From Escherichia coli (GTDB lineage: Bacteria > Pseudomonadota > Gammaproteobacteria > Enterobacterales > Enterobacteriaceae), in NCBI RefSeq assembly GCF_003019035.1, contig NZ_CP027447.1: a stretch of DNA of 64,000 nt; one strand, 5' to 3'. This document shows, piece by piece, positions 21,972-42,626 of the stretch. The notes under the pieces were generated by a model. The model made no database searches. It was not told the DNA's origin and was given only the letters and a program-made list of their open reading frames with translations. Both the position numbers and the translations under genes were made by a program. Position 1 is the first letter of the stretch; each line of letters begins with the position of its first letter.

Positions 21972-22280
21972 ACTGAAAATCCTTCTGTTTTAGCTGTGTT
22001 TCTGAAACCGGCTTTTCGCCATCAGTGAAGTACGCGCTGCCAGTGCGACGCGCTCTGCTGAAACTCACAAAAATGGATAATCTCATCCAATAGATCACTG
22101 ATACGGCGATCCAGTGTTGTAATCAGCGCAGCCACACCATCCTGGTTGATTTCAACGGACGGGCTGAAACATACCTGGTAAACCACCTGCAGAATGTCTG
22201 CAACAGAGAGGTGGTATGTCCCGGAGATATTTTTGTGTGCCGTCATGCCTGGATAACCCTGTTTAATGAAATAGTGGTGG

Positions 22281-23477: not shown

Positions 23478-23996
23478 ATGCCAACACCGTGTTATATCTC
23501 CATCACTGGTCAGACCCAGGGAAATATTACTGCAGGTGCATTTACCGCTGATTCTGTCGGCAACATCTATGTGCAGGGGCACGAAGACGAGATGCTGGTG
23601 CAGGAATTCCTGCATAACGTTACTGTCCCGACCGATCCTCAGTCCGGCCAGCCTGCGGGTCAGCGTGCTCACAAGCCGTTCATTTTTACCGTGGCGCTGA
23701 ACAAAGCTGTTCCGCTGATGTACAACGCACTGGCCTCCGGCGAAATGCTGCCAACCACTGAACTTCACTGGTGGCGTACCTCTGTGGAAGGCAAACAGGA
23801 GCATTATTTCACCACCCGCCTGACCGATTCGACGATTGTCGATATGAAACTGCATATGCCGCATTGCCAGGATCCGGCGAAACGCGAGTTCACCCAGTTG
23901 CTCGAAGTTTCACTGGCCTACCGCAAAATAGAGTGGGAACACGTCAAATCTGGCACCTCCGGTGCCGACGACTGGCGCGCACCGCTGGAAGCATAA
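23478..23996 (+). CDS. hcp: T6SS tube protein Hcp
   Basis: 172-aa ORF, RBS aaggag, Hcp-type N-terminus; followed by hairpin terminator. Confidence 0.9.
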   Translation: MPTPCYISITGQTQGNITAGAFTADSVGNIYVQGHEDEMLVQEFLHNVTVPTDPQSGQPAGQRAHKPFIFTVALNKAVPLMYNALASGEMLPTTELHWWRTSVEGKQEHYFTTRLTDSTIVDMKLHMPHCQDPAKREFTQLLEVSLAYRKIEWEHVKSGTSGADDWRAPLEA

Positions 23997-24205: not shown

Positions 24206-26314
24206 ATGTCAACCGGATTACGTTTCACGCTGGAAGTGGACGGCCTGCCACCGGACGCGTTTGCGGTGGTCTCCTTTCATCTGAACCAGTCACTCTCTTC
24301 GCTCTTTTCCCTCGATCTCTCTCTGGTCAGCCAGCAGTTTCTCTCCCTTGAATTTGCGCAGGTGCTGGACAAAATGGCCTACCTGACGGTATGGCAGGGC
24401 GATGACGTACAGCGCCGGGTGAAAGGTGTGGTGACCTGGTTTGAACTGGGGGAGAACGACAAAAACCAGATGCTGTACAGCATGAAGGTGTGCCCACCGC
24501 TGTGGCGCACAGGGCTGCGCCAGAACTTCCGTATCTTCCAGAATGAGGACATCGAAAGCATACTCGCGACGATCCTGAAAGAAAACGGGGTGACCGAGTG
24601 GAGTCCGCTGTTCAGCGAGCCGCATCCTTCCCGTGAGTTTTGTGTCCAGTACGGCGAAACCGATTACGATTTCCTGTGCCGGATGGCGGCGGAGGAAGGC
24701 ATCTTCTTTTATGAGGAGCACGCGCAAAAAAGTACCGACCAGAGCCTGGTCCTGTGCGACACCGTGCGTTATCTGCCGGAGTCCTTTGAGATCCCCTGGA
24801 ATCCGAACACCCGTACCGAGGTGAGCACCCTATGCATCAGCCAGTTCCTCTACAGCGCACAAATCCGCCCATCTTCCGTGGTGACCAAAGACTACACCTT
24901 TAAACGACCCGGCTGGGCAGGGCGTTTTGATCAGGAAGGCCAGCACCAGGATTACCAGCGCACACAGTATGAAGTGTATGACTACCCCGGACGTTTCAAG
25001 GGTGCCCACGGGCAGAACTTTGCCTGCTGGCAGATGGATGGCTGGCGAAACAACGCAGAAGTGGCGCGCGGAACAAGCCGTTCGCCGGAGATATGGCCGG
25101 GACGGCGAATTGCGCTGACGGGGCATCCGCAGGCGAACCTGAACCGGGAATGGCAGGTGGTGGCAAGTGAACTGCACGGCGAGCAGCCGCAGGCGGTGCC
25201 GGGACGCAGTGGTTCAGGTACCACGCTGAATAACCACTTTGCGGTAATACCGGCAGACAGAACATGGCGGCCACAGCCGTTGCTGAAACCGCTGGTGGAC
25301 GGCCCGCAGAGCGCCGTCGTGACGGGACCGGCAGGAGAAGAAATCTTCTGTGATGAACATGGCCGCGTGCGGGTGAAATTTAACTGGGACCGTTATAACC
25401 CGTCAAACCAGGACAGTTCATGCTGGATCCGTGTGGCACAGGCGTGGGCAGGCACCGGGTTTGGTAACCTGGCGATACCGCGTGTGGGTCAGGAGGTCAT
25501 TGTGGACTTCCTCAACGGCGATCCGGACCAGCCGATTATTATGGGGCGCACCTACCACCAGGAAAACCGCACCCCCGGCAGCCTGCCGGGAACAAAGACG
25601 CAAATGACCATTCGTTCAAAAACCTATAAGGGCAGCGGGTTTAATGAACTGAAGTTTGACGATGCGACAGGGAAAGAACAGGTCTACATCCACGCGCAGA
25701 AGAACATGAACACCGAGGTGCTGAATAACCGCACCACAGATGTGATAAACAACCATGCTGAGACCATCGGCAACAATCAGGTGATTGCGGTTACCAACAA
25801 TCAGATACAGACGGTGGGCGTTAACCAGATAGAGACGGTGGGCAGTAACCAGATCATTAAAGTGGGCTCTGTTCAGGTGGAAACGATTGGACTTGTTCGT
25901 GCGCTGACTGTGGGCGTGGCGTATCAGACGACGGTAGGTGGCATTATGAACACCTCGGTGGCCCTGATGCAGTCCTCGCAGATCGGTTTGCATAAATCGT
26001 TGATGGTCGGGCTGGGTTATGACGTCAAAGTCGGAAATAACGTTACCTTCACCGTTGGTAAAACGAAAAAGGATGATACCGGGCAGACCGCGATTTACTC
26101 CGCCGGTGAGCATCTGGAACTCTGCTGTGGTAAGGCAAGGCTGGTGCTGACTAAGGACGGACAAATTTTTCTCAACGGCACAAAAATTCATTTGCAGGGT
26201 AAGGAGCAGGTTAATGGTGACTCACTGTTGATTAACTGGAACTGTGCAGCCTCGAAATCCCCACCGAAGACCCCTGATGAAAAGCAGGATACGCCGGATA
26301 TGAGAGAGTACTGA
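24206..26314 (+). CDS. vgrG: T6SS spike protein VgrG (no C-terminal effector extension)
   Basis: 702-aa ORF, RBS ggagg; gp27/gp5-like region with repeated VxxNQ beta-helix motifs (NNQVIAVTNNQIQTVGVNQIETVGSNQIIKVGSVQ). Confidence 0.9.
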   Translation: MSTGLRFTLEVDGLPPDAFAVVSFHLNQSLSSLFSLDLSLVSQQFLSLEFAQVLDKMAYLTVWQGDDVQRRVKGVVTWFELGENDKNQMLYSMKVCPPLWRTGLRQNFRIFQNEDIESILATILKENGVTEWSPLFSEPHPSREFCVQYGETDYDFLCRMAAEEGIFFYEEHAQKSTDQSLVLCDTVRYLPESFEIPWNPNTRTEVSTLCISQFLYSAQIRPSSVVTKDYTFKRPGWAGRFDQEGQHQDYQRTQYEVYDYPGRFKGAHGQNFACWQMDGWRNNAEVARGTSRSPEIWPGRRIALTGHPQANLNREWQVVASELHGEQPQAVPGRSGSGTTLNNHFAVIPADRTWRPQPLLKPLVDGPQSAVVTGPAGEEIFCDEHGRVRVKFNWDRYNPSNQDSSCWIRVAQAWAGTGFGNLAIPRVGQEVIVDFLNGDPDQPIIMGRTYHQENRTPGSLPGTKTQMTIRSKTYKGSGFNELKFDDATGKEQVYIHAQKNMNTEVLNNRTTDVINNHAETIGNNQVIAVTNNQIQTVGVNQIETVGSNQIIKVGSVQVETIGLVRALTVGVAYQTTVGGIMNTSVALMQSSQIGLHKSLMVGLGYDVKVGNNVTFTVGKTKKDDTGQTAIYSAGEHLELCCGKARLVLTKDGQIFLNGTKIHLQGKEQVNGDSLLINWNCAASKSPPKTPDEKQDTPDMREY

Positions 26315-26380
26315 TCCCGTACCTGTTCAGTATTCAGTAACAAACAAGCATTAAAAATAAACAGAAGAAGGAATTGAATC

Positions 26381-29300
26381 ATGAGCGGAAAACCGGCGGC
26401 GCGTCAGGGAGATATGACCCAGTATGGCGGTCCCATTGTCCAGGGTTCGGCAGGTGTAAGAATTGGCGCGCCCACCGGCGTGGCCTGTTCAGTGTGCCCG
26501 GGCGGAGTCACTTCCGGCAACCCGGTAAACCCGCTGCTGGGAGCGAAGGTGCTGCCCGGTGAGACGGATGTTGCGCTGCCCGGTCCGCTGCCGTTCATTC
26601 TCTCCCGCACCTACAGCAGCTACCGGACCCGGACGCCTGCACCGGTGGGCGTTTTCGGCCCCGGCTGGAAAGCGCCTTCTGATATCCGCTTACAGCTACG
26701 TGATGACGGACTGATACTCAACGACAACGGCGGGCGGAGCATTCACTTTGAGCCGCTGCTGCCGGGGGAGGCGGTGTACAGCCGCAGCGAGTCAATGTGG
26801 CTGGTGCGTGGCGGTAAGGCAACGCAGCCGGACGGCCACACGCTGGCACGGCTGTGGGCGTCGCTGCCGCCGGATATCCGGTTAAGCCCGCATCTTTACC
26901 TGGCGACCAACAGCGCACAGGGGCCGTGGTGGATACTCGGCTGGTCAGAGCGGGTGCCGGGTACTGAGGACGTACTGCCAGCGCCGCTGCCGCCGTACCG
27001 GGTGCTTACCGGGCTGGCGGACCGCTTCGGGCAGACGCTGACGTACCGGCGTGAGGCCGCCGGTGACCTGGCCGGGGAAATCACCGGCGTGACGGACGGT
27101 GCCGGGCGGAAGTTCCGTCTGGTGCTGACCACACAGGCGCAGCGGGCGGAAGAGGCCCGTAAACAGCACACCGCTTCCTTATCTTCCCCTGACACCCCCC
27201 GCCCTCTTTCAGACTCAGCTTTCCCCGACACACTGCCCGGTACGGAATACGGCCCCGACAGGGGTATCCGCCTTTCGGCGGTGTGGCTGATGCACGACCC
27301 GGCATACCCGGAAAGCCTGCCCGGTGCGCCACTGGCGCGGTACACGTATACGGAAGCCGGTGAACTGCTGGCGGTATATGACCGCAGCAATACGCAGGTG
27401 CGCGCTTTCACGTATGACGTGCAGCACCCGGGCCGGATGGTGGGGCACCGTTATGCGGGAAGGCCGGAGATGCGCTACCGCTACGACAATACCGGGCGGG
27501 TGGTGGAGCAGCTGAACCCGGCAGGGTTAAGCTATCGCTATCTTTATGAGCAGGACCGCATCACCATCACGGACAGCCTGAACCGGCGAGAGGTGCTGCA
27601 TACAGAAGGCGGGGCCGGGCTGAAGCGGGTGGTGAAAAAAGAACTGGCGGACGGCAGCGTCACGCACAGCGGGTATGACGCGGCAGGAAGGCTCACGGCA
27701 CAGACGGACGCGGCGGGACGGCAGACAGAGTACGGTCTGAATGTGGTGTCAGGCGATATCACGGACATCACCACGCCGGACGGGCGGGAGACGAAATTTT
27801 ACTATAACGACGGGAACCAGGTGACGGCAGTGGTGTCCCCGGACGGGCTGGAGAGCCGCCGGGCGTATGATGAGCGGGACAGGCTGGTAACGGAGACATC
27901 GCGCAGTGGGGACGTCATCCGGTATGCTTATGATAATCCGCACAGTGAATTACCGGCCACGACAACAGATGCGACGGGCAGCACCCGGCAGATGACCTGG
28001 AGCCGCTACGGGCAGTTGCTGGCGTTCACCGACTGCTCGGGCTACCAGACCCGCTATGAGTACGACCGCTTCGGCCAGATGACGGCGGTCCACCGCGAGG
28101 AAGGCATCAGCCTTTACCGCCGCTATGACAACCGTGGCCGGTTAACCTCGGTGAAAGACGCACAGGCCCGTGAAACGCAGTATGAGTACAACGCCGCAGG
28201 CGACCTGACTGCCGTTATCACCCCGGATGGCAACCGGAGTGAGACACAGTACGATGGGTGGGGAAAGGCCATCAGCACCACGCAGGGCGGGCTGACGCGC
28301 AGTATGGAGTACGATGCTGCCGGACGTATCACCACGCTGACTAACGAGAACGGCAGCCACAGCGACTTTAGTTACGATGCGCTGGACCGCCTGATACAGC
28401 AGGGCGGCTTTGACGGGCGGACGCAACGTTATCATTATGACCTGACCGGAAAACTCACGCAGAGTGAAGATGAGGGGCTTGTCATCCTCTGGTACTACGA
28501 TGAATCGGACCGTATTACTCACCGCACGGTAAACGGTGAACCGGCAGAACAGTGGCGGTATGACGGCCACGGCTGGCTGAGAGAAATCAGCCACCTGAGC
28601 GAAGGCCACCGTGTTGCCGTCCACTATGGCTATGATAATAAAGGCCGCCTGACCAGTGAGCGCCAGACGGTGCATCACCCGGAGACGGGAGAGCTGCTCT
28701 GGCAGCATGAGACCGGACATGCGTACAACGAACAGGGGCTGGCAAACCGCGTCACGCCGGACAGTCTGCCGCCGGTGGAGTGGCTGACCTATGGTAGCGG
28801 TTATCTGGCAGGCATGAAGCTGGGCGGGACGCCGCTGCTGGAGTTCACGCGCGACCGCCTGCACCGTGAGACGGTGCGCAGCTTCGGCAGCATGGCAGGC
28901 AGTAATGCCGCATACGAACTGACCAGCACATACACCCCTGCAGGCCAGTTACAGAGTCAGCACCTGAACAGCCTGGTGTATGACCGTGACTACGGGTGGA
29001 ATGACAACGGAGACCTGGTGCGCATCAGCGGCCCGCGACAGACGCGGGAATACGGCTACAGCGCCACGGGCAGGCTGGAGAGTGTGCGCACCCTCGCACC
29101 GGACCTGGACATCCGCATCCCGTATGCCACGGACCCGGCGGGCAACCGGCTGCCGGACCCGGAGCTGCACCCGGACAGTACACTCACAGTGTGGCCGGAT
29201 AACCGCATCGCGGAGGATGCGCACTATGTCTACCGCCACGATGAATACGGCAGGCTGACGGAGAAGACGGACCGCATCCCGGCGGGTGTGATACGGACGG

Positions 29301-29989
29301 ACGACGAGCGGACCCACCACTACCACTACGACAGCCAGCACCGCCTGGTGTTCTACACGCGGATACAGCATGGCGAGCCACTGGTCGAGAGCCGCTACGT
29401 CTACGACCCGCAGGGACGGCGAATGGCGAAACGGGTATGGCGGCGGGAGCGTGACCTGACGGGGTGGATGTCGCTGTCGCGTAAACCGGAGGTGACGTGG
29501 TACGGCTGGGACGGCGACCACCTGACGACGGTGCAGACCGACAGCACACGTATCCAGACGGTATACGAGCCGGGAAGCTTCACACCGCTCATCCGCATCG
29601 AAACAGACAACGGCGAGCGGGAGAAAACGCAGCGGCGGAGCCTGGCGGAGAAGCTCCAGCAGGAAGGGAGCGAGGACGGACACGGTGTGGTGTTCCCGGC
29701 TGAACTGGTGAGGATGCTGGACAGGCTGGAGGAAGAAATCCGGGCAGACCGCGTGAGCGGTGAAAGCCGGACGTGGCTTGCACAGTGCGGGCTGGCGGTG
29801 GAGCAACTGGAAAAACAGGTGGAGCCGGAATACACGCCGGAACGCACACTGCATCTTTACCACTGCGACCATCGGGGACTGCCGCTGGCGCTTATCAGCG
29901 AAGACGGCAATACGGTGTGGAGCGCGGAGTATGATGAATGGGGAAACCTGCTTAATGAGGAGAACCCGCATCATGTGTATCAGTCATAG
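26381..29989 (+). CDS. rhs: PAAR-like/Rhs-repeat protein core, terminated by an in-frame TAG at 29987-29989
   Basis: 1202-aa ORF; N-terminal AARQGD...[18 protein letters not shown] (prePAAR/PAAR-like), long run of YD/Rhs repeats ([32 protein letters not shown]), ends ...[10 protein letters not shown] then stop. Confidence 0.85.
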
Positions 29990-30598
29990 CGTCTGCCGGG
30001 GCAGCAGCATGATGAGGAGTCGGGGCTGTATTATAACCGGAACCGGTACTACAATCCGTTGCTGGGGAGGTATATTACCCAGGATCCAATTGGGCTGGAG
30101 GGGGGATGGAACCTGTATAATTACCCACTGAATCCGATAATAAGGATGGATCCTTTGGGTTTGTATAATTTATATCAATTATTATATGATGTTTGGCATG
30201 ATGATTCATATGGAACATCATCAATTGATATTACTGGCAGTGGAGATCTAATATCATTAGGTGGTCATGCAGGACTTGGCGTTGCGTTTGCTAAAAAGAA
30301 AGGTGAAATGTTATCTGATATTTGTATTTATGCTACAGCATGCGGACATGCAGGAATTGGTGGTGGGATAAATGCGGCTATCACATATTCTGAGACCAAG
30401 TCTTTACCTACATCGGGAGTCAGCAATTCAGTAGGTGTAACGGTTGGCGGCGGAGTTGGGGGGCATTTTGCGTATACTTATGTAGTGGATGTTGATAATC
30501 CAGAATCATCGACAGAATCTGTTGGTATCGGTGCAGGTGTTGACGCTTCAGTTATGACTCTGGCTTGTAGAACGTGGCAAGAATGCTGGGTCAATTAA
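29990..30598 (+). CDS. In-frame continuation of the Rhs gene after the TAG: end of conserved core (RLPGQQ...[10 protein letters not shown]...DPLGL) plus about 145-aa glycine-rich C-terminal toxin domain of unknown activity
   Basis: Same reading frame as 26381-29989 (both start at coordinate mod 3 = 2) with a single stop between; contains the Rhs core-end motif [44 protein letters not shown], then an AT-rich Gly-rich tail ([35 protein letters not shown]). Confidence 0.6.
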
Positions 30599-30609
30599 CA
30601 GGAGGAAAT

Positions 30610-31005
30610 ATGAAAGAATATATATTTTTAGTTTTATTTTTATTGTGTGGTTGTTCTCCAGTGGACATAGAGCCAGCTAGACAAGAAGTTAATATCTTTC
30701 GTGGTTTATATCAGACAGGAAAATACAGTGATATATATAAAATCACTTCAAGTGATTTTCAGACTGCCACATCTGAAAAAAAATTTATCGACATAATGAG
30801 CGAAGCAAAAGGAAAAGATCTTGGGACTTATAAAAAATCAACCCTTAAAACTGAAAAAATCACTCGCGGATTATTTTCAAACGATGAAATTACATTGATA
30901 TATTTCTCAGAATATTCAAAAAGAATTGTCCAAGAGGTTTTTGTGTTTAATGTTGAAGACAAAAAAGTAAAATTAAAAGGTTATAGGTATGATTCGATTA
31001 ATTAA
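30610..31005 (+). CDS. Small lipoprotein, putative cognate immunity protein for the Rhs C-terminal domain
   Basis: 131-aa ORF from ATG with RBS aggagg 5 bp upstream; signal peptide with cysteine (FLVLFLLCGCSP); AT-rich; starts 12 bp after the Rhs tip stop. Confidence 0.55.
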   Translation: MKEYIFLVLFLLCGCSPVDIEPARQEVNIFRGLYQTGKYSDIYKITSSDFQTATSEKKFIDIMSEAKGKDLGTYKKSTLKTEKITRGLFSNDEITLIYFSEYSKRIVQEVFVFNVEDKKVKLKGYRYDSIN

Positions 31006-31099
31006 ATTTTTTGATGATGACTTCAATTAGTAGAACATGTATTTTTCGATAAAAGCACCGATGACTTTTTCATGAAGTTCTACAGAGCGCGAGAAACAG

Positions 31100-32450
31100 A
31101 TGGTTCTGCGAGTCAGACGTTTGATTCAGGTTCTCAGGGGCAGATTCAGGGACAGGGAAAGATCATCAGAAGTTCACTTTTTGCACTAAATAATTCGCAT
31201 TTTATGTTTAAAAATTGAGATATTTCTCATTACCTGAAACTGTTTTTTTATTGCTTATACATGATCAAATACTCCTTACATAATTAAGGAGAACAAAATG
31301 GAACTTAAAAAATTGATGGAACATATTTCTGTTATCCCCGATTACAGACAAGCCTGGAAAGTGGAACATAAATTATCGGATATTCTACTGTTGACTATTT
31401 GTGCCGTTATTTCGGGTGCAGAAGGCTGGGAAGATATAGAGGATTTTGGGGAAACACATCTCGATTTTTTGAAGCAATATGGTGATTTTGATAATGGTAT
31501 TCCTGTTCACGATACCATTGCCAGAGTTGTATCCTGTATCAGTCCTGCAAAATTTCACGAGTGCTTTATTAACTGGATGCGTGACTGCCATTCTTCAGAT
31601 GATAAAGACGTCATCGCAATTGATGGAAAAACACTCCGGCATTCTTATGACAAGAGTCGCCGCAGGGGAGCGATTCATGTCATTAGTGCGTTCTCAACAA
31701 TGCACAGTCTGGTCATCGGACAGATCAGGACGGATGAGAAATCCAATGAGATTACAGCTATCCCTGAACTTCTTAACATGGTGGATATTAAAGGAAAAAT
31801 CATCACAACTGATGCGATGGGTTGCCAGAAAGATATAGCAGAGAAGATACAAAAACAGGGCGGTGATTATTTATTCGCTGTAAAAGGAAATCAGGGTCGG
31901 CTAAATAAAGCCTTTGAGGAAAAATTCCCACTGAAAGAATTAAATAATCCAGAACATGACAGTTACGCAATTAGTGAAAAGAGTCACGGCAGAGAAGAAA
32001 TCCGTCTTCACATTGTTTGCGATGTCCCTGATGAACTTATTGATTTCACGTTTGAATGGAAAGGTCTGAAGAAATTATGCGTGGCAGTCTCCTTTCGGTC
32101 AATAATAGCAGAACAAAAGAAAGAGCCCGAAATGACGGTCAGATATTATATCAGTTCTGCTGATTTAACCGCAGAGAAGTTCGCCACAGCAATCCGAAAC
32201 CACTGGCACGTGGAGAATAAGCTGCACTGGCGTCTGGACGTGGTAATGAATGAAGACGACTGCAAAATAAGAAGAGGAAATGCAGCAGAATTATTTTCAG
32301 GGATACGGCACATCGCTATTAATATTTTAACGAATGATAAGGTATTCAAGGCAGGGTTAAGACGTAAGATGCGAAAAGCAGCCATGGACAGAAACTACCT
32401 GGCGTCAGTCCTTGCGGGGAGCGGGCTTTCGTAATCTTGCCCTGACCCGT
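31100..32450 (+). mobile_element. H-repeat / ISAs1-family insertion sequence at the distal end of the Rhs element (boundaries approximate)
   Basis: Contains the 378-aa H-repeat-associated transposase ORF; exact inverted-repeat ends not resolved by eye. Confidence 0.45.
31298..32434 (+). CDS. ISAs1-family transposase (H-repeat-associated protein)
   Basis: 378-aa ORF, RBS aaggag; DDE-type transposase typically found 3' of rhs genes in E. coli. Confidence 0.8.
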
Positions 32451-32482
32451 AGTCTTACCCCGGCCCTAAACACAACCCCCAC

Positions 32483-33253
32483 TCACCACAACCTAAACTC
32501 ATCCGCATCCTGCCATGCCGGAAACTTTTCTCTATATTCCCGCAATGCCATCATCGACAGCTCCGCATCAATGCGCGTTGCCTGATGCGCGTCGGCGGTG
32601 GCAATAATCTCGCCTTGTGGATTAATCACCCGGCTGTCACCGCGATAATGGCAGCCGTTGCCATCGCTGCCGACGCGATTGCATCCCGCCACATACGCCT
32701 GATTCTCAATCGCGCGGGCTGTCAGCAATGCCTGCCAGTGCAGAGAGCGCGGAGCAGGCCAGTTGGCGACGTACAGGGCGAGGTCATAATCGTTGAGATT
32801 GCGCGACCACACAGGAAAACGTAAGTCGTAGCACACCAGCGGCAAAATACGCCAGCCGCGCCATTCCACAATTACTCGCGCATTGCCCGCTTTATAATGC
32901 AGATGCTCATCTGCCATGCGGAACAGATGACGCTTATCATAAAAATGTACCGTGCCGCCCGGCTCAACCAGCAAAAAGCGGTTAACCGAACCAGACTCCG
33001 TTTGTAATGCAACACTGCCTGCAATCAGCGCATTGCACTGCTGCGCTTTAGCTGTCATCCAGTTCACTACGTCATTTTGTGCTAGCGACGAAGCTGCCGC
33101 TTCCATGGCAAAGCCGCTGGTAAACATCTCCGGTAGAACGATCACATCGCGCCCGGTAATACCTTCCAGTTGACGATCAAAATGGCGCAGGTTGGCAGGG
33201 CCATCCATCCACACCAGTGGTTGCTGCAAAAGCGTAATCTTCAAACCAGGCAC
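32483..33253 (-). CDS. yafV: Carbon-nitrogen hydrolase family protein YafV (omega-amidase)
   Basis: Nitrilase-superfamily features (catalytic Cys context LPLVCYDLRFPVW); start set at GTG giving MPGLKITLLQQPLVW with RBS ggag. Confidence 0.85.
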   Translation of the reverse strand: MPGLKITLLQQPLVWMDGPANLRHFDRQLEGITGRDVIVLPEMFTSGFAMEAAASSLAQNDVVNWMTAKAQQCNALIAGSVALQTESGSVNRFLLVEPGGTVHFYDKRHLFRMADEHLHYKAGNARVIVEWRGWRILPLVCYDLRFPVWSRNLNDYDLALYVANWPAPRSLHWQALLTARAIENQAYVAGCNRVGSDGNGCHYRGDSRVINPQGEIIATADAHQATRIDAELSMMALREYREKFPAWQDADEFRLW

Positions 33254-33406
33254 GGTGTACAACTCCTTTATGCGAAGGGTTTTATAACTCTAACACCTTA
33301 TCAGGCAGTTGCCTTAGCGCAGAATAAATTGATAACAAATGCTGATATTGGAAATATCTGATTTGCAAATTATCGTGTTATCGCCAGGCTTTAGGAGGTT
33401 AATAAC

Positions 33407-40532: not shown

Positions 40533-42626
40533 TCAACTCAACGCCCCCATAATCTTCAACTCCAGCTCGTCCGGCACTTCGTTATACGACAGCACATGCA
40601 GCCCCGGCGCAAACAATCTCGCATAGCGCGCCAGCAAAGGGCGCAACTGCGGTGGCACCAGCAGCACAGGGTCTTTCCCCGCCGCTTTCATCTGCTCCTT
40701 CACTTGCGGCATCGTACTCTGGAACTGGTTGAGCATATTCGGGTCAACCGGCACGCTGTCGAGCATCACTTTGCCGGCCTGTTGCGCCTGATTCACCACG
40801 TTGGTCAGCAGATTTTCCAGCTCATTATTCAGCGTATACACCGTCAGCTCCTGCTTGCGAACGAACGGATGGGTAATGCTGCGCCGCAGCGCCAGGCGCA
40901 CATCTGCCGCCAGCAGAATATGATCTTTGGTCACCGCACTACTGGCGACAAGCACGGTGGCGATGGTGACGATATCGCGCAGGGAAACGCCTTCAGTCAG
41001 CAGCGCCCGGTACACTTTCAGCAACTGGCTGTAATTCAGCGCCGCGCTCAAATCCTCCGCCAGGCGCGGTGCCATCGACGACAAACGGTTATGCAGCTGA
41101 GTAATATCGTCATAGTTAAACAAATCAGGAATATAGCTGCGCACAATCTTATTCACATGTGTGGCAATTACGCTGGCGCTGTCGATCACCTGATACCCCA
41201 TATTCAGCGCCTTCGCCTTCTGCGCGGGCTGGATCCAGGTGACCGGCATCCCATATGCCGGGTCATTCCCCAGTACGCCGTCAATCTCGCCGTAGGTTTC
41301 GCTGGAGGGCAGGGCCATCAGTTTATCCGCCGGAATATCCGCTTCATCAGCCTTAATGCCGTTGATGAAAATGGCGTACTGGCTGGGCTTGAGACGGAAG
41401 TTTTCCCGAATACGGATCTCCGGCAGCAGCACGCCGTTACCGTCGGATATCACCTGCCGCACGCCGCGAATCCGCTGGGTGAGCGGGTTCCCCTGCGCTT
41501 TGTCCACCAGCGCCACCAGCTTGTAGCCGAGGCTTAAGCTGATGGGCTCGATCAGCGGAATGGTTTCCCAACTGACCTGTTGCTCGCTGGTTTCGGTGAT
41601 GGTTCGGGTCAGCGTTTCGAGGCTTTTCTCCTCCGCCTCCGCCGCCTGCGGGCGTTTGCTCATCCGCCAGCCGGTAAAGCCAAGCAGGGCGCTGAACAGC
41701 AAAAATGGCAGATGCGGCATCCCCGGCACCACCGCCAGCACAAACATGATCCCGGTGGCGGTGTAGAGCACCGACGGACTTGCCAGCAGCTGGTGGCGCA
41801 CGTCATGGGCGATATCGCCGTTGTCGCTGACGCGGGTGACGATAATTGCCGCCGCGGTGGAGAGCAGCAGGGACGGGATCTGCGCCACCAGCCCGTCGCC
41901 GATGGTCATCAGCACATATTGCTGGAAGGCGGCGTCGGCGCTCAGGTTGTATTTGAAGATCCCGATACAGACGCCGCCGATCAGGTTGATCGCCAGAATC
42001 ATCATCCCGGCGATGGCATCGCCGCGCACAAACTTCGATGCCCCGTCCATCGCGCCGTAGAAATCGGCCTCGCTGGCAACATCTTTACGCCGGGTTTGCG
42101 CCTGCGCCTGGTTGATCAATCCGGCGTTAAGATCGGCGTCAATCGCCATCTGCTTGCCGGGCATCGCGTCCAGGGTAAAGCGGGCAGAAACCTCGGAAAT
42201 ACGCTCGGCCCCTTTGGTGACGACGATAAAGTTGATGATCATCAGGATGATAAACACCACAAAGCCGACGACAAAGTTGCCGCCAATCACCACCTGACCA
42301 AATGACTCAATCACCTTACCCGCCGCGCCTGCGCCGAGATGCCCGTGCAGCAGCACCACGCGCGTAGAAGCAACGTTAAGCGTCAGGCGCATTAGGGTGG
42401 TGATCAGCAAAATGGTCGGGAACAGGCTGAATTCCAGCGGTCGTTTCGCCGACACCGCCACCAGCAGCACCATCACCGCCAGCACAATGTTGAAGGTGAA
42501 CAGAATATCCAGCAACGCAGGCGGCAGCGGCAGAATAACCATCGCCAGAATACACAGGATCACCAGCGGCACGCCGAGATTGCCGCCGCGCAGCAGCGCG
42601 AGGAACGATTTAGTTGTTTTCGCCAT
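40533..42626 (-). CDS. lfhA: Lateral flagellar export gate protein (FlhA homologue)
   Basis: 697-aa ORF, N-terminal polytopic membrane domain plus cytoplasmic domain, FlhA-like. Confidence 0.9.
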   Translation of the reverse strand: MAKTTKSFLALLRGGNLGVPLVILCILAMVILPLPPALLDILFTFNIVLAVMVLLVAVSAKRPLEFSLFPTILLITTLMRLTLNVASTRVVLLHGHLGAGAAGKVIESFGQVVIGGNFVVGFVVFIILMIINFIVVTKGAERISEVSARFTLDAMPGKQMAIDADLNAGLINQAQAQTRRKDVASEADFYGAMDGASKFVRGDAIAGMMILAINLIGGVCIGIFKYNLSADAAFQQYVLMTIGDGLVAQIPSLLLSTAAAIIVTRVSDNGDIAHDVRHQLLASPSVLYTATGIMFVLAVVPGMPHLPFLLFSALLGFTGWRMSKRPQAAEAEEKSLETLTRTITETSEQQVSWETIPLIEPISLSLGYKLVALVDKAQGNPLTQRIRGVRQVISDGNGVLLPEIRIRENFRLKPSQYAIFINGIKADEADIPADKLMALPSSETYGEIDGVLGNDPAYGMPVTWIQPAQKAKALNMGYQVIDSASVIATHVNKIVRSYIPDLFNYDDITQLHNRLSSMAPRLAEDLSAALNYSQLLKVYRALLTEGVSLRDIVTIATVLVASSAVTKDHILLAADVRLALRRSITHPFVRKQELTVYTLNNELENLLTNVVNQAQQAGKVMLDSVPVDPNMLNQFQSTMPQVKEQMKAAGKDPVLLVPPQLRPLLARYARLFAPGLHVLSYNEVPDELELKIMGALS

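Follow-up and report, generated by a model that had tools for sequence, protein, structure and literature searches.

The Rhs protein encoded by the E. coli DNA analysed here (64,000 nucleotides, hereafter the window) is best read as a standard E. coli 'Rhs core protein' of the T6SS2-linked or 'neighbourless' kind, which has the architecture of Tse5 and, by analogy with it, would be loaded through a single PAAR repeat independently of a chaperone. We give this reading a probability of roughly 85%. An earlier sequence-only reading had labelled the N-terminus prePAAR-like and regarded the lack of an adjacent Eag-type chaperone gene as puzzling, so that either the chaperone is encoded elsewhere or this Rhs loads onto VgrG differently. 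The second of these alternatives appears to be the right conclusion, since loading on VgrG without an Eag chaperone would be the known behaviour of this class of Rhs. Indeed, an Rhs N-terminus of this kind without an Eag chaperone is already known and ordinary.

The gene layout is as that reading had described it: rhs follows vgrG after 66 bp with no small ORF between them, as both the coordinates and the stops in six frames confirm. The vgrG gene (24206..26314; all features given here are on the plus strand) encodes 702 aa, ends in TGA and lies directly 5' of rhs as its cognate spike gene. Its product matches Phage_GPD (247.6 bits), Phage_base_V and Gp5_trimer_C in Pfam, with P. protegens VgrG1 (7q5p, E 1.6e-100) and P. 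aeruginosa VgrG1 as relatives in the PDB. The spacer (26315..26380) holds a GAAGGA Shine-Dalgarno/ribosome-binding site just before the rhs ATG at 26381, exactly 66 nt from the end of vgrG; stops close all six of its frames, leaving no hidden coding, and neither a promoter-like nor a terminator-like site was found within it. Given that an in-frame TGA stands one codon 5' of the ATG, an N-terminal extension of Rhs is not possible. The same spacer recurs with one SNP in three other E. coli loci (L001, L004 and L005), the O157:H7 RhsE locus included, and the rhs module closes a T6SS2-type cluster located at tRNA-Asp, adjoining yafV-ivy-fadE.

As present, the rhs ORF (26381..29989) spans 1202 aa and is closed by a premature TAG. 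Delimited by Pfam and by similarity to Tse5, the protein comprises DUF6531 (PF20148, 68.1 bits) at residues 46-123 (26516..26749), 11 RHS repeats and an RHS core at 1158-1193. Ahead of DUF6531, residues 1-29 (26381..26467) are a single PAAR repeat, a 'PAAR-like' module recognized by its alignment to third PAAR repeats. The AARxxD string and PAAR-like segment noticed by the sequence-only reading are present and conserved in relatives: the AARxxD-type motif occupies residues 6-15 (nt 26396-26425) and is followed by a Gly-rich stretch and then by ACSVCPGG. The motif is not a chance match: across 94 unique N-termini from relatives, G3-K4-P5-A6-A7-R8, D11, I19, G22, S23, V26, I28, G29, C36 and C39 all show conservation of at least 86%. 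Residues 2-29 align with the third and last PAAR repeat of 4jiv_D (67-93), 9rce_c (71-98), 4jiw_D (67-92) and 8gra_J (68-98), and the profile of the relatives aligns to 163-196 of 7pq5_L, which is the last PAAR repeat of Photorhabdus Rhs1 and not its prePAAR (31-45). The Pfam PAAR_motif (PF05488) covers residues 2-20 with 17.2-18.8 bits, below the gathering cutoff of 27, and does so with positions 51-69 of the 70 in the profile; the window Rhs has one repeat and not the three-repeat PAAR cone expected at 27 bits or more. A zinc ligand of the DxxxH/C type is absent, with Y15 standing where the third repeat of 9rce_c and of 4jiv_D has its His/Cys, and position 15 is unconstrained among the 94 N-termini (K in 47%, Y in 29%). 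The orphan PAAR proteins E. coli c1882 (4jiw) and V. cholerae VCA0105 (4jiv) have one repeat homologous to Rhs residues 2-29, sharing K-P-A-A-R-x-G-D...G-G-x-I-x-x-G-S-x-x-V-x-I-G, but they carry three repeats and four His/Cys zinc ligands, whereas the window Rhs has one repeat and a Tyr at the ligand position. An AlphaFold2 model of residues 1-137, computed from a 31-sequence alignment, had a mean pLDDT of 51.6 and a pTM of 0.27.

A query with the first 130 residues returned almost exclusively near-identical enterobacterial fragments, and diversity came from the representatives search. In 198 of the 221 retrieved relatives that bear it, the PVNPxLGxK motif lies at position 44-52, which corresponds to one repeat. 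Eight relatives have it at about 95-109, and in most of these three PAARxxD repeats precede this same ACSxCPG-PVNP linker; the three-repeat relatives tested scored 142.4 (P0201), 125.9 (P0221) and 65.7 bits (P0168) with the PAAR_motif, and P0168 has Tyr at every ligand position. DcrB was absent at the four relatives' loci with usable flanks (one three-repeat and three single-repeat), and at the three-repeat locus vgrG lies 52 bp 5' of rhs. Two candidates for N-terminally extended relatives, P0196 and P0178, were rejected, both being vgrG-rhs deletion fusions and not prePAAR proteins.

Tse5 (PA2684 of P. aeruginosa, spike VgrG1c/VgrG4; 8cp6) is the best solved relative of the window Rhs (8cp6_B, E 2.2e-100). 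The two proteins have in common a 47-residue N-terminal fragment devoid of TM segments, PVNPxLGxK at position 48, the DUF6531 plug and a homologous shell. The cleaved shell chain of Tse5 begins with PVNPMLGSK and aligns to P48 of the window Rhs, where residues 48-56 (PVNPLLGAK, 26522..26548) mark the start of the shell and a putative N-terminal autocleavage site, N47|P48. In Tse5 the K47/P48 site was mapped by N-terminal sequencing (PMC10684867), and the 5-kDa M1-K47 fragment has been described as 'PAAR-like' and without a membrane-binding module (PMC10684867, PMC9637101). DUF6531 acts there as an N-terminal plug that anchors residues 30-47 inside the shell, while residues 1-29 are disordered in the cryo-EM map (PMC10684867) and are visible in no structure; sequence and profile searches of the PDB for the Tse5 N-terminal fragment returned the shell chain only. 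Since the Tse5 N-terminus has no literal PAAR signature and gave no sequence alignment, residues 1-47 of the two proteins are equated by their position and length and not by residue identity. By position, residues 30-47 of the window Rhs (26468..26521), a linker with a conserved G-x-A-C-S-x-C-P-G-G, would be the part that threads into the Rhs shell as an anchor, and its DUF6531 would likewise act as the plug.

Tse5 is delivered through a particular VgrG and its C-terminal toxin is freed by an aspartyl autoprotease; secretion involves association with VgrG1c, and no chaperone is named in the Tse5 papers (PMC10684867, PMC9637101). The literal P-A-A-R signature is missing in Tse5 but kept in the window Rhs, and cleavage, which falls after K47 in the former, would fall after N47 in the latter. 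The toxins are unrelated by sequence, the immunity protein of Tse5 has two TM segments whereas that of the window Rhs would be a lipoprotein-like ORF, and, unlike in Tse5, a stop codon breaks the frame of the window Rhs. Direct binding to VgrG, N-terminal cleavage and independence of a chaperone are what Tse5 and published work on E. coli lead us to infer for this class. In such a scheme, vgrG and rhs would be transcribed together, the short PAAR-like module would attach straight to the tip of the VgrG whose gene ends 66 bp 5', a Tse5-like autocleavage at N47|P48 would probably leave the linker threaded inside the shell, and the toxin would be carried inside the Rhs shell.

Within E. coli, the RhsA-E proteins of K-12 and O157 and the 'T6SS2-Rhs' and 'Rhs-Nb' ('neighbourless') classes (Ma et al., 2017, via PMC6730261 and PMC7216683) belong to the same protein family. 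E. coli Rhs core proteins share 88-98% identity with the window Rhs across its first 130 residues, and the O157:H7 RhsE locus has the same module, vgrG-66 bp-rhs-small ORF-IS1 remnant-ISAs1. Nothing essential sets the window rhs apart from this class; what is peculiar to it is the private nonsense codon and a core sequence specific to its lineage, with about 96% DNA identity to most other copies. According to reviews of the E. coli T6SS, Rhs proteins linked to eagR are phylogenetically distinct from the 'neighbourless' ones, which group with T6SS2-Rhs (Ma et al., 2017, via PMC6730261 and PMC7216683), and the same reviews report an Rhs-CT3 to be T6SS2 (ClpV2)-dependent (PMC6730261, PMC7216683).

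The state of this particular copy is a separate matter. An in-frame TAG (29987..29989), which turns Tyr1203 into a stop and is TAC in the relative SCU-301, falls between the shell and the autoprotease motif and toxin. The reading frame continues beyond it (29990..30598) with ...DPIGL...MDPLGL and a Gly-rich C-terminal toxin of ~145 aa, as judged from the intact O157:H7 homologue: the protein of the RhsE locus (L005) is contiguous at 1400 aa, and the toxin portion that was compared matches residue for residue. The toxin domain has no Pfam or PDB match. An immunity-type small lipoprotein ORF follows (30610..31005), known in relatives as 'RHS element protein dsORF-e4'; its N-terminus, MKEYIFLVLFLLCGC, reads directly from the sequence as lipobox-like, and it gave sub-threshold Pfam matches only and no PDB match. 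Motif, toxin and immunity-type ORF are all present but cut off from the shell by the TAG. With a nonsense codon before the toxin, this rhs copy is probably not a working toxin, and the protein it encodes may be neither loaded nor active.

It is possible, if doubtful, that the copy is a decaying pseudogene whose N-terminal motif is an inherited relic, with nothing loaded on VgrG in this strain. The TAG precedes both the DPxGL autoprotease motif and the toxin and is a private allele: the 45-mer that contains it occurs in none of 5,426 complete E. coli genomes, while the TAC version occurs in 5. The annotation of the closest genomes, SCU-301 and DETEC-S792, lists this gene as frameshifted, and remnants of IS1 and ISEc1 lie downstream. 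Nonetheless, nothing else interrupts the 1202 codons of the ORF, whose N-terminus is fully conserved, and the neighbouring vgrG still encodes an intact protein of 702 aa, which is not the case in SCU-301. The TAG could also be a sequencing error, and a truncated shell could still bind VgrG. Moreover, decay would concern the state of the copy and is compatible with the identity of its N-terminal module. Just before DPIGL the window has YYNP and not YYDP, as does the nearest relative, SCU-301, and this difference is not taken here as the loss of a catalytic Asp.

Another question regards how one repeat meets a trimeric spike. As the pseudo-threefold PAAR cone takes more than one repeat, we propose, as an unlikely option, that this very common class of Rhs caps the VgrG trimer in a non-canonical manner: three Rhs N-termini, each giving one repeat, might form an intermolecular 'trimeric PAAR', or one repeat might sit on one VgrG chain. 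The former would place three shells on each spike, and the latter would leave an asymmetric and largely uncapped VgrG tip. The three-repeat relatives on the same linker, P0168 included, show at the sequence level that such a repeat would be compatible with a cone. No other PAAR gene is found in the wider T6SS2 cluster, and therefore the Rhs module would, under non-canonical capping, be its only tip piece.

The same lack of a complete three-fold cone would favour loading through another adaptor (DUF4123/Tap, DUF2169 or similar), or a separate, distant PAAR that caps VgrG while Rhs is bound at its side, and the locus of one relative (L009) does have a DUF2169 gene near a vgrG. We nonetheless consider this very unlikely. 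Among the scanned ORFs of at least 70 aa in the 64 kb, which include the whole T6SS cluster, there is no DUF4123, DUF2169, PAAR or DUF4150 gene; in a six-frame search of the window the only PAAR-like motif is the Rhs N-terminus itself; and the Tse5 papers name no adaptor (PMC10684867).

As for an Eag chaperone, none of the scanned ORFs of 70-310 aa in the 64-kb window matched DcrB/DUF1795 (PF08786), and tblastn of a real Eag protein against the window gave a best E of 0.27. The observation that no chaperone gene is linked to this rhs therefore holds for the whole window, but its standing as an anomaly does not, for it is what is expected of this class: given that the Rhs has no transmembrane helices, there is nothing to shield and no Eag/DUF1795 gene would be expected. 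Transmembrane segments were called by Kyte-Doolittle hydropathy over 19 residues with positive controls. The whole window Rhs has no hydrophobic segment (maximum mean 0.98, with no 19-residue stretch at or above 1.6), while the Eag-bound controls reach 2.34 (Tse6 N-terminus), 2.31 (Photorhabdus Rhs1) and 2.79 (Salmonella Rhs1 N-terminus) and the E. coli prePAAR Rhs of locus L016 reaches 2.69. A query with the Salmonella Rhs1 N-terminus returned short fragments only, yet pointed to the control loci.

The prePAAR label itself is not supported by these comparisons. The strict pattern AARxxDxxxH has no match in the window Rhs, where Tyr15 replaces the defining His, and the pattern also matches unsplit three-repeat PAAR domains and is not specific alone. 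The Pfam profile prePAAR_I (PF25799) does not match even at E<=10, while the three Eag-bound controls score 23.6, 32.2 and 79.0 bits and L016 scores 85.7 bits. Nor is there a split PAAR domain after a TMD: DUF6531 begins at residue 46 and the sole PAAR signal is at residues 2-20, whereas in L016 the PAAR_motif covers residues 72-138 with 57.7 bits. The sequence-only reading had itself named a lack of TM segments together with that of a genuine prePAAR motif on profile analysis as grounds for its refutation, and both are lacking. Class I prePAAR Rhs proteins (Salmonella Rhs1-SciW, Photorhabdus Rhs1-EagR, P. protegens RhsA-EagR1 and L016) do share with the window Rhs the shell with its DUF6531 plug, a neighbouring vgrG and an N-terminus that derives from PAAR and opens with AARxxD. 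However, they have AARxxDxxxH, a TMD (2.3-2.8 on the same hydropathy scale), a split PAAR, DUF6531 from about residue 224 and a DcrB/DUF1795 gene 18-20 bp 5', and the window Rhs shows none of these. The likeness arises because prePAAR shares ancestry with a PAAR repeat (Ahmad, 2020; PMC7773334) and the N-terminus in the window is such a repeat.

A genuine prePAAR effector with its Eag/DUF1795 chaperone encoded elsewhere in the genome is scarcely credible, and is already refuted on the features tested here: although A6-A7-R8 and D11 stand in the exact register of Tse6 (A6-A7-R8, D11, H15), DcrB-related Eag genes are possible in E. coli (one variant in 21 of 5,426 genomes) and eagR z0706 is present in O157:H7 according to the E. 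coli T6SS literature, position 15 is variable and not His, the TMD that Eag chaperones bind in prePAAR effectors (PMC7773334) is missing, PF25799 is unmatched where all controls match, no split PAAR precedes DUF6531, and E. coli Eag genes, where present, lie 20 bp 5' of a different, TMD-bearing Rhs. Since prePAAR is a displaced piece of a PAAR repeat, AARxxD at the start of an Rhs is insufficient for a prePAAR call, and what tells the two apart is the presence of a TMD, of a split PAAR after it and of a PF25799 match.

The chaperone arrangement was detected where it exists: the same methods found vgrG-DcrB-prePAAR Rhs in L013-L016, of which L016 (E. coli isolate 23S01245-7) has it at the same yafV-ivy-fadE site, and the test was therefore able to detect it. 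One chromosomal site thus offers a natural contrast, with what would be a chaperone-independent vgrG-66 bp-rhs here and a vgrG-eag-prePAAR rhs in another E. coli.

Judged by its alignments, the window Rhs starts with a single PAAR repeat, either left over from a PAAR domain or a building block of one, that is joined straight to the Rhs shell. This identification follows from consistent matches to a last PAAR repeat and from the single-repeat spacing seen in relatives. Residues 2-29 align with the third (last) PAAR repeat of 4jiv_D (67-93), 9rce_c (71-98), 4jiw_D (67-92) and 8gra_J (68-98). A profile built from 31 relatives falls on residues 163-196 of Photorhabdus Rhs1, again the last PAAR repeat, the prePAAR motif of that protein lying at 31-45. 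On the window Rhs, Pfam PAAR_motif matches at profile positions 51-69 of 70 only, with 17-19 bits against a cutoff of 27. The N-terminal 47 residues are followed by PVNPLLGAK, and among 1.84 billion representative proteins 470 relatives were found, 221 of them retrieved with PVNPxLGxK. This motif sits at residue 44-52 (one repeat) in 198 of the 221 and at about 95-109 in eight, most of which have three PAARxxD repeats joined to that same linker (...ACSxCPG...PVNP); three scanned relatives with a late PVNPxLGxK score 65.7-142.4 bits for PAAR_motif. The AlphaFold model of the isolated N-terminal fragment is of low confidence (pLDDT 51.6). In one three-repeat PAAR-Rhs relative (P0168, residues 1-101), Tyr stands where each repeat would have its His/Cys zinc ligand (GTEYGG, PVIYGG, ETLYGG); repeats resembling that of the window may here form a PAAR cone that holds no zinc. 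Two further relatives (P0196 and P0178) are chimeras: a VgrG N-terminus runs in frame into Rhs at ...GPLPFILSR, as if a deletion between vgrG and rhs had fused the two and taken the PAAR-like module with it.

The sequence-only reading had taken this N-terminus for prePAAR-like. Ahmad et al. (2020, PMC7773334) define effectors of that kind by four features: AARxxDxxxH, TMDs right after it, a downstream split PAAR without the first segment, and the joint occurrence of Eag/DUF1795 chaperones, whose binding targets are the TMDs. In unsplit PAAR proteins, they add, the N-terminal segment is the part homologous to prePAAR. As positive controls we used three N-termini crystallised with Eag, namely Tse6 (6xrf_C), Photorhabdus Rhs1 (7pq5_L, residues 31-80) and Salmonella Rhs1 (6xrr_J), and, from the same species, the prePAAR Rhs of E. 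coli isolate 23S01245-7 (1377 aa). Against these, the prePAAR identity was not supported: the window Rhs shows the combination (no TM segment, no genuine prePAAR motif by profile) that the sequence-only reading itself had named as refuting it. The controls have AARxxDxxxH, where the window Rhs has Tyr in place of His; their top 19-residue Kyte-Doolittle means are 2.34, 2.31, 2.79 and 2.69 (the last from E. coli), against 0.98 for the whole window Rhs, in which no stretch reaches 1.6 or more; and Pfam PF25799 (prePAAR_I) scores 23.6, 32.2, 79.0 and 85.7 bits (again E. coli last), with no match to the window Rhs at E ≤ 10. The E. coli control has PAAR_motif at residues 72-138 (57.7 bits) and DUF6531 from residue 224, whereas DUF6531 begins already at residue 46 in the window Rhs. 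Residue 15 is mixed among 94 unique N-termini of relatives (Lys 47%, Tyr 29%), so no conserved zinc ligand sits there. As for the strict AARxxDxxxH regex, it lacks specificity, since PAAR repeats of unsplit three-repeat domains match it too.

The gene layout, by comparison, had been described correctly in every particular, including the motif at the Rhs start. The window is E. coli chromosome, best matched by SCU-301 (99.5% over 8.5 kb), and holds a complete T6SS2-type cluster running from tRNA-Asp (137-213) through hcp (23478-23996) and vgrG (24206-26314) to rhs (from 26381). The rhs ATG lies 66 nt past the vgrG TGA, behind a GAAGGA ribosome-binding site. Stops close all six frames of the spacer and an in-frame TGA stands one codon upstream of the ATG, so neither a small ORF nor a concealed Rhs N-terminal extension is present. 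No promoter-like or terminator-like site was found in the spacer; a strong terminator-like hairpin lies 3' of hcp. Downstream follow a small immunity-type ORF, an IS1 remnant, the ISEc1 transposase gene, yafV, ivy and fadE. The O157:H7 RhsE locus carries the vgrG-66 bp-rhs module too, and 2,674 of 5,426 complete genomes have a place covering 80% or more of the query. The IS1 transposase remnant and intact ISEc1 (ISAs1-family, 'H-repeat') gene (31298-32434), together spanning 31005-32434 directly 3' of the module, give it the classic Rhs-element composition, as at the RhsE locus.

A linked Eag gene is indeed missing: DcrB/DUF1795 has no match among the scanned 70-310 aa ORFs of the 64-kb window, and tblastn with a control-locus Eag protein gave a best E of 0.27 there, while the same search picked up, in another control locus, an Eag gene that had not been called (54% identity). 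All four prePAAR loci examined have an Eag gene directly upstream of the effector. No DcrB gene turned up in the relatives' loci whose flanks could be used, three with a single repeat and one with three repeats and vgrG 52 bp upstream; a fifth contig, too short to judge, was left out. In E. coli 23S01245-7 the order is vgrG, 23 bp, a DcrB gene (PF08786, 122.3 bits), 20 bp, and the 1377-aa Rhs, at the same ISAs1-yafV-ivy-fadE site as the window module. There (NZ_OZ197100.1 2026611-2041054, compared with window 24206-33262) the ISAs1 copy is a remnant and the T6SS end differs, with TagF and glucosaminidase genes preceding vgrG, the DcrB/Eag gene and the prePAAR Rhs. Chaperone-dependent and chaperone-independent Rhs modules are thus alternative occupants of one locus.

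How might such an Rhs be loaded? Among solved structures, P. aeruginosa Tse5 (8cp6_B, E 2.2e-100) matches the protein as a whole best; its deposited shell chain starts PVNPMLGSK, aligned with P48 of the window Rhs; the layout is shared residue for residue, residues 1-47 being equivalent by position and length. Tse5 is cleaved at K47/P48, and its 5-kDa fragment M1-K47 contains a 'cryptic PAAR-like' domain, required for secretion, and has no membrane-binding module; the DUF6531 plug keeps residues 30-47 anchored within the shell, residues 1-29 are disordered in the map, delivery is via VgrG1c, and no chaperone is mentioned (PMC10684867, PMC9637101, PMC7376260). In the window, vgrG and rhs would be co-transcribed. 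By analogy with Tse5 and published E. coli work, the one-repeat module would bind its cognate VgrG tip directly, and the Cys-containing linker would remain threaded inside the shell, probably following autocleavage at N47|P48. With no TMDs to be kept in solution, an Eag chaperone would be superfluous. Loading without Eag, the alternative offered by the sequence-only reading, is taken to be right, but it is already the known norm for this class. For E. coli, PMC7216683 and PMC6730261 (both citing Ma et al., 2017) already draw this line: they place eagR only beside a phylogenetically distinct Rhs (rhsF in EDL933) and cluster 'neighbourless' Rhs with those encoded by T6SS2.

The window rhs copy itself is probably dead as a toxin. 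An in-frame TAG at 29987-29989 (TAC to TAG, Tyr1203 to stop) ends the ORF and cuts the shell off from the DPxGL autoprotease motif and toxin; beyond it the frame runs on (...DPIGL...MDPLGL, then Gly-rich toxin) to 30598. The nearest relative has TAC here. Of 5,426 complete E. coli genomes, five have the TAC version of the 45-mer centred on the G of the TAG and not one has the TAG version itself; the allele is thus either a sequencing error or a nonsense mutation private to this genome. The toxin (30140-30598, about 145 aa, Gly-rich with GxxxG-like runs) has no match in Pfam or PDB; the toxin portion shown for the intact protein of the O157:H7 RhsE locus is identical residue for residue. The ORF behind it (30610-31005) has a lipoprotein-like N-terminus (MKEYIFLVLFLLCGC) and sub-threshold Pfam matches only. 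We can only guess that 30140-31005 encodes a membrane-acting toxin and a lipoprotein immunity protein.

Elsewhere in the window, a 74-aa ORF between tssB and tssC (22022-22246, minus strand), 'hypothetical' in the SCU-301 annotation, weakly matches the VipB/TssC sheath protein N-terminus (17.3 bits) and may be a duplicated fragment. From about 40500 to 64000 lies an apparently complete lateral-flagella (Flag-2-like) cluster, with an FlhA-like 697-aa ORF (40533-42626), FliP, FliH, FliJ, FlgN, FlgA, FlgD and rod proteins; at this position SCU-301, the closest genome, retains only an flhA remnant beside lafU. In SCU-301 the annotation marks each of the homologous vgrG, rhs and tssH genes as frameshifted or partial, whereas the window has an open vgrG (702 aa) and an open tssH ORF; decay of the island seems to proceed separately from strain to strain.
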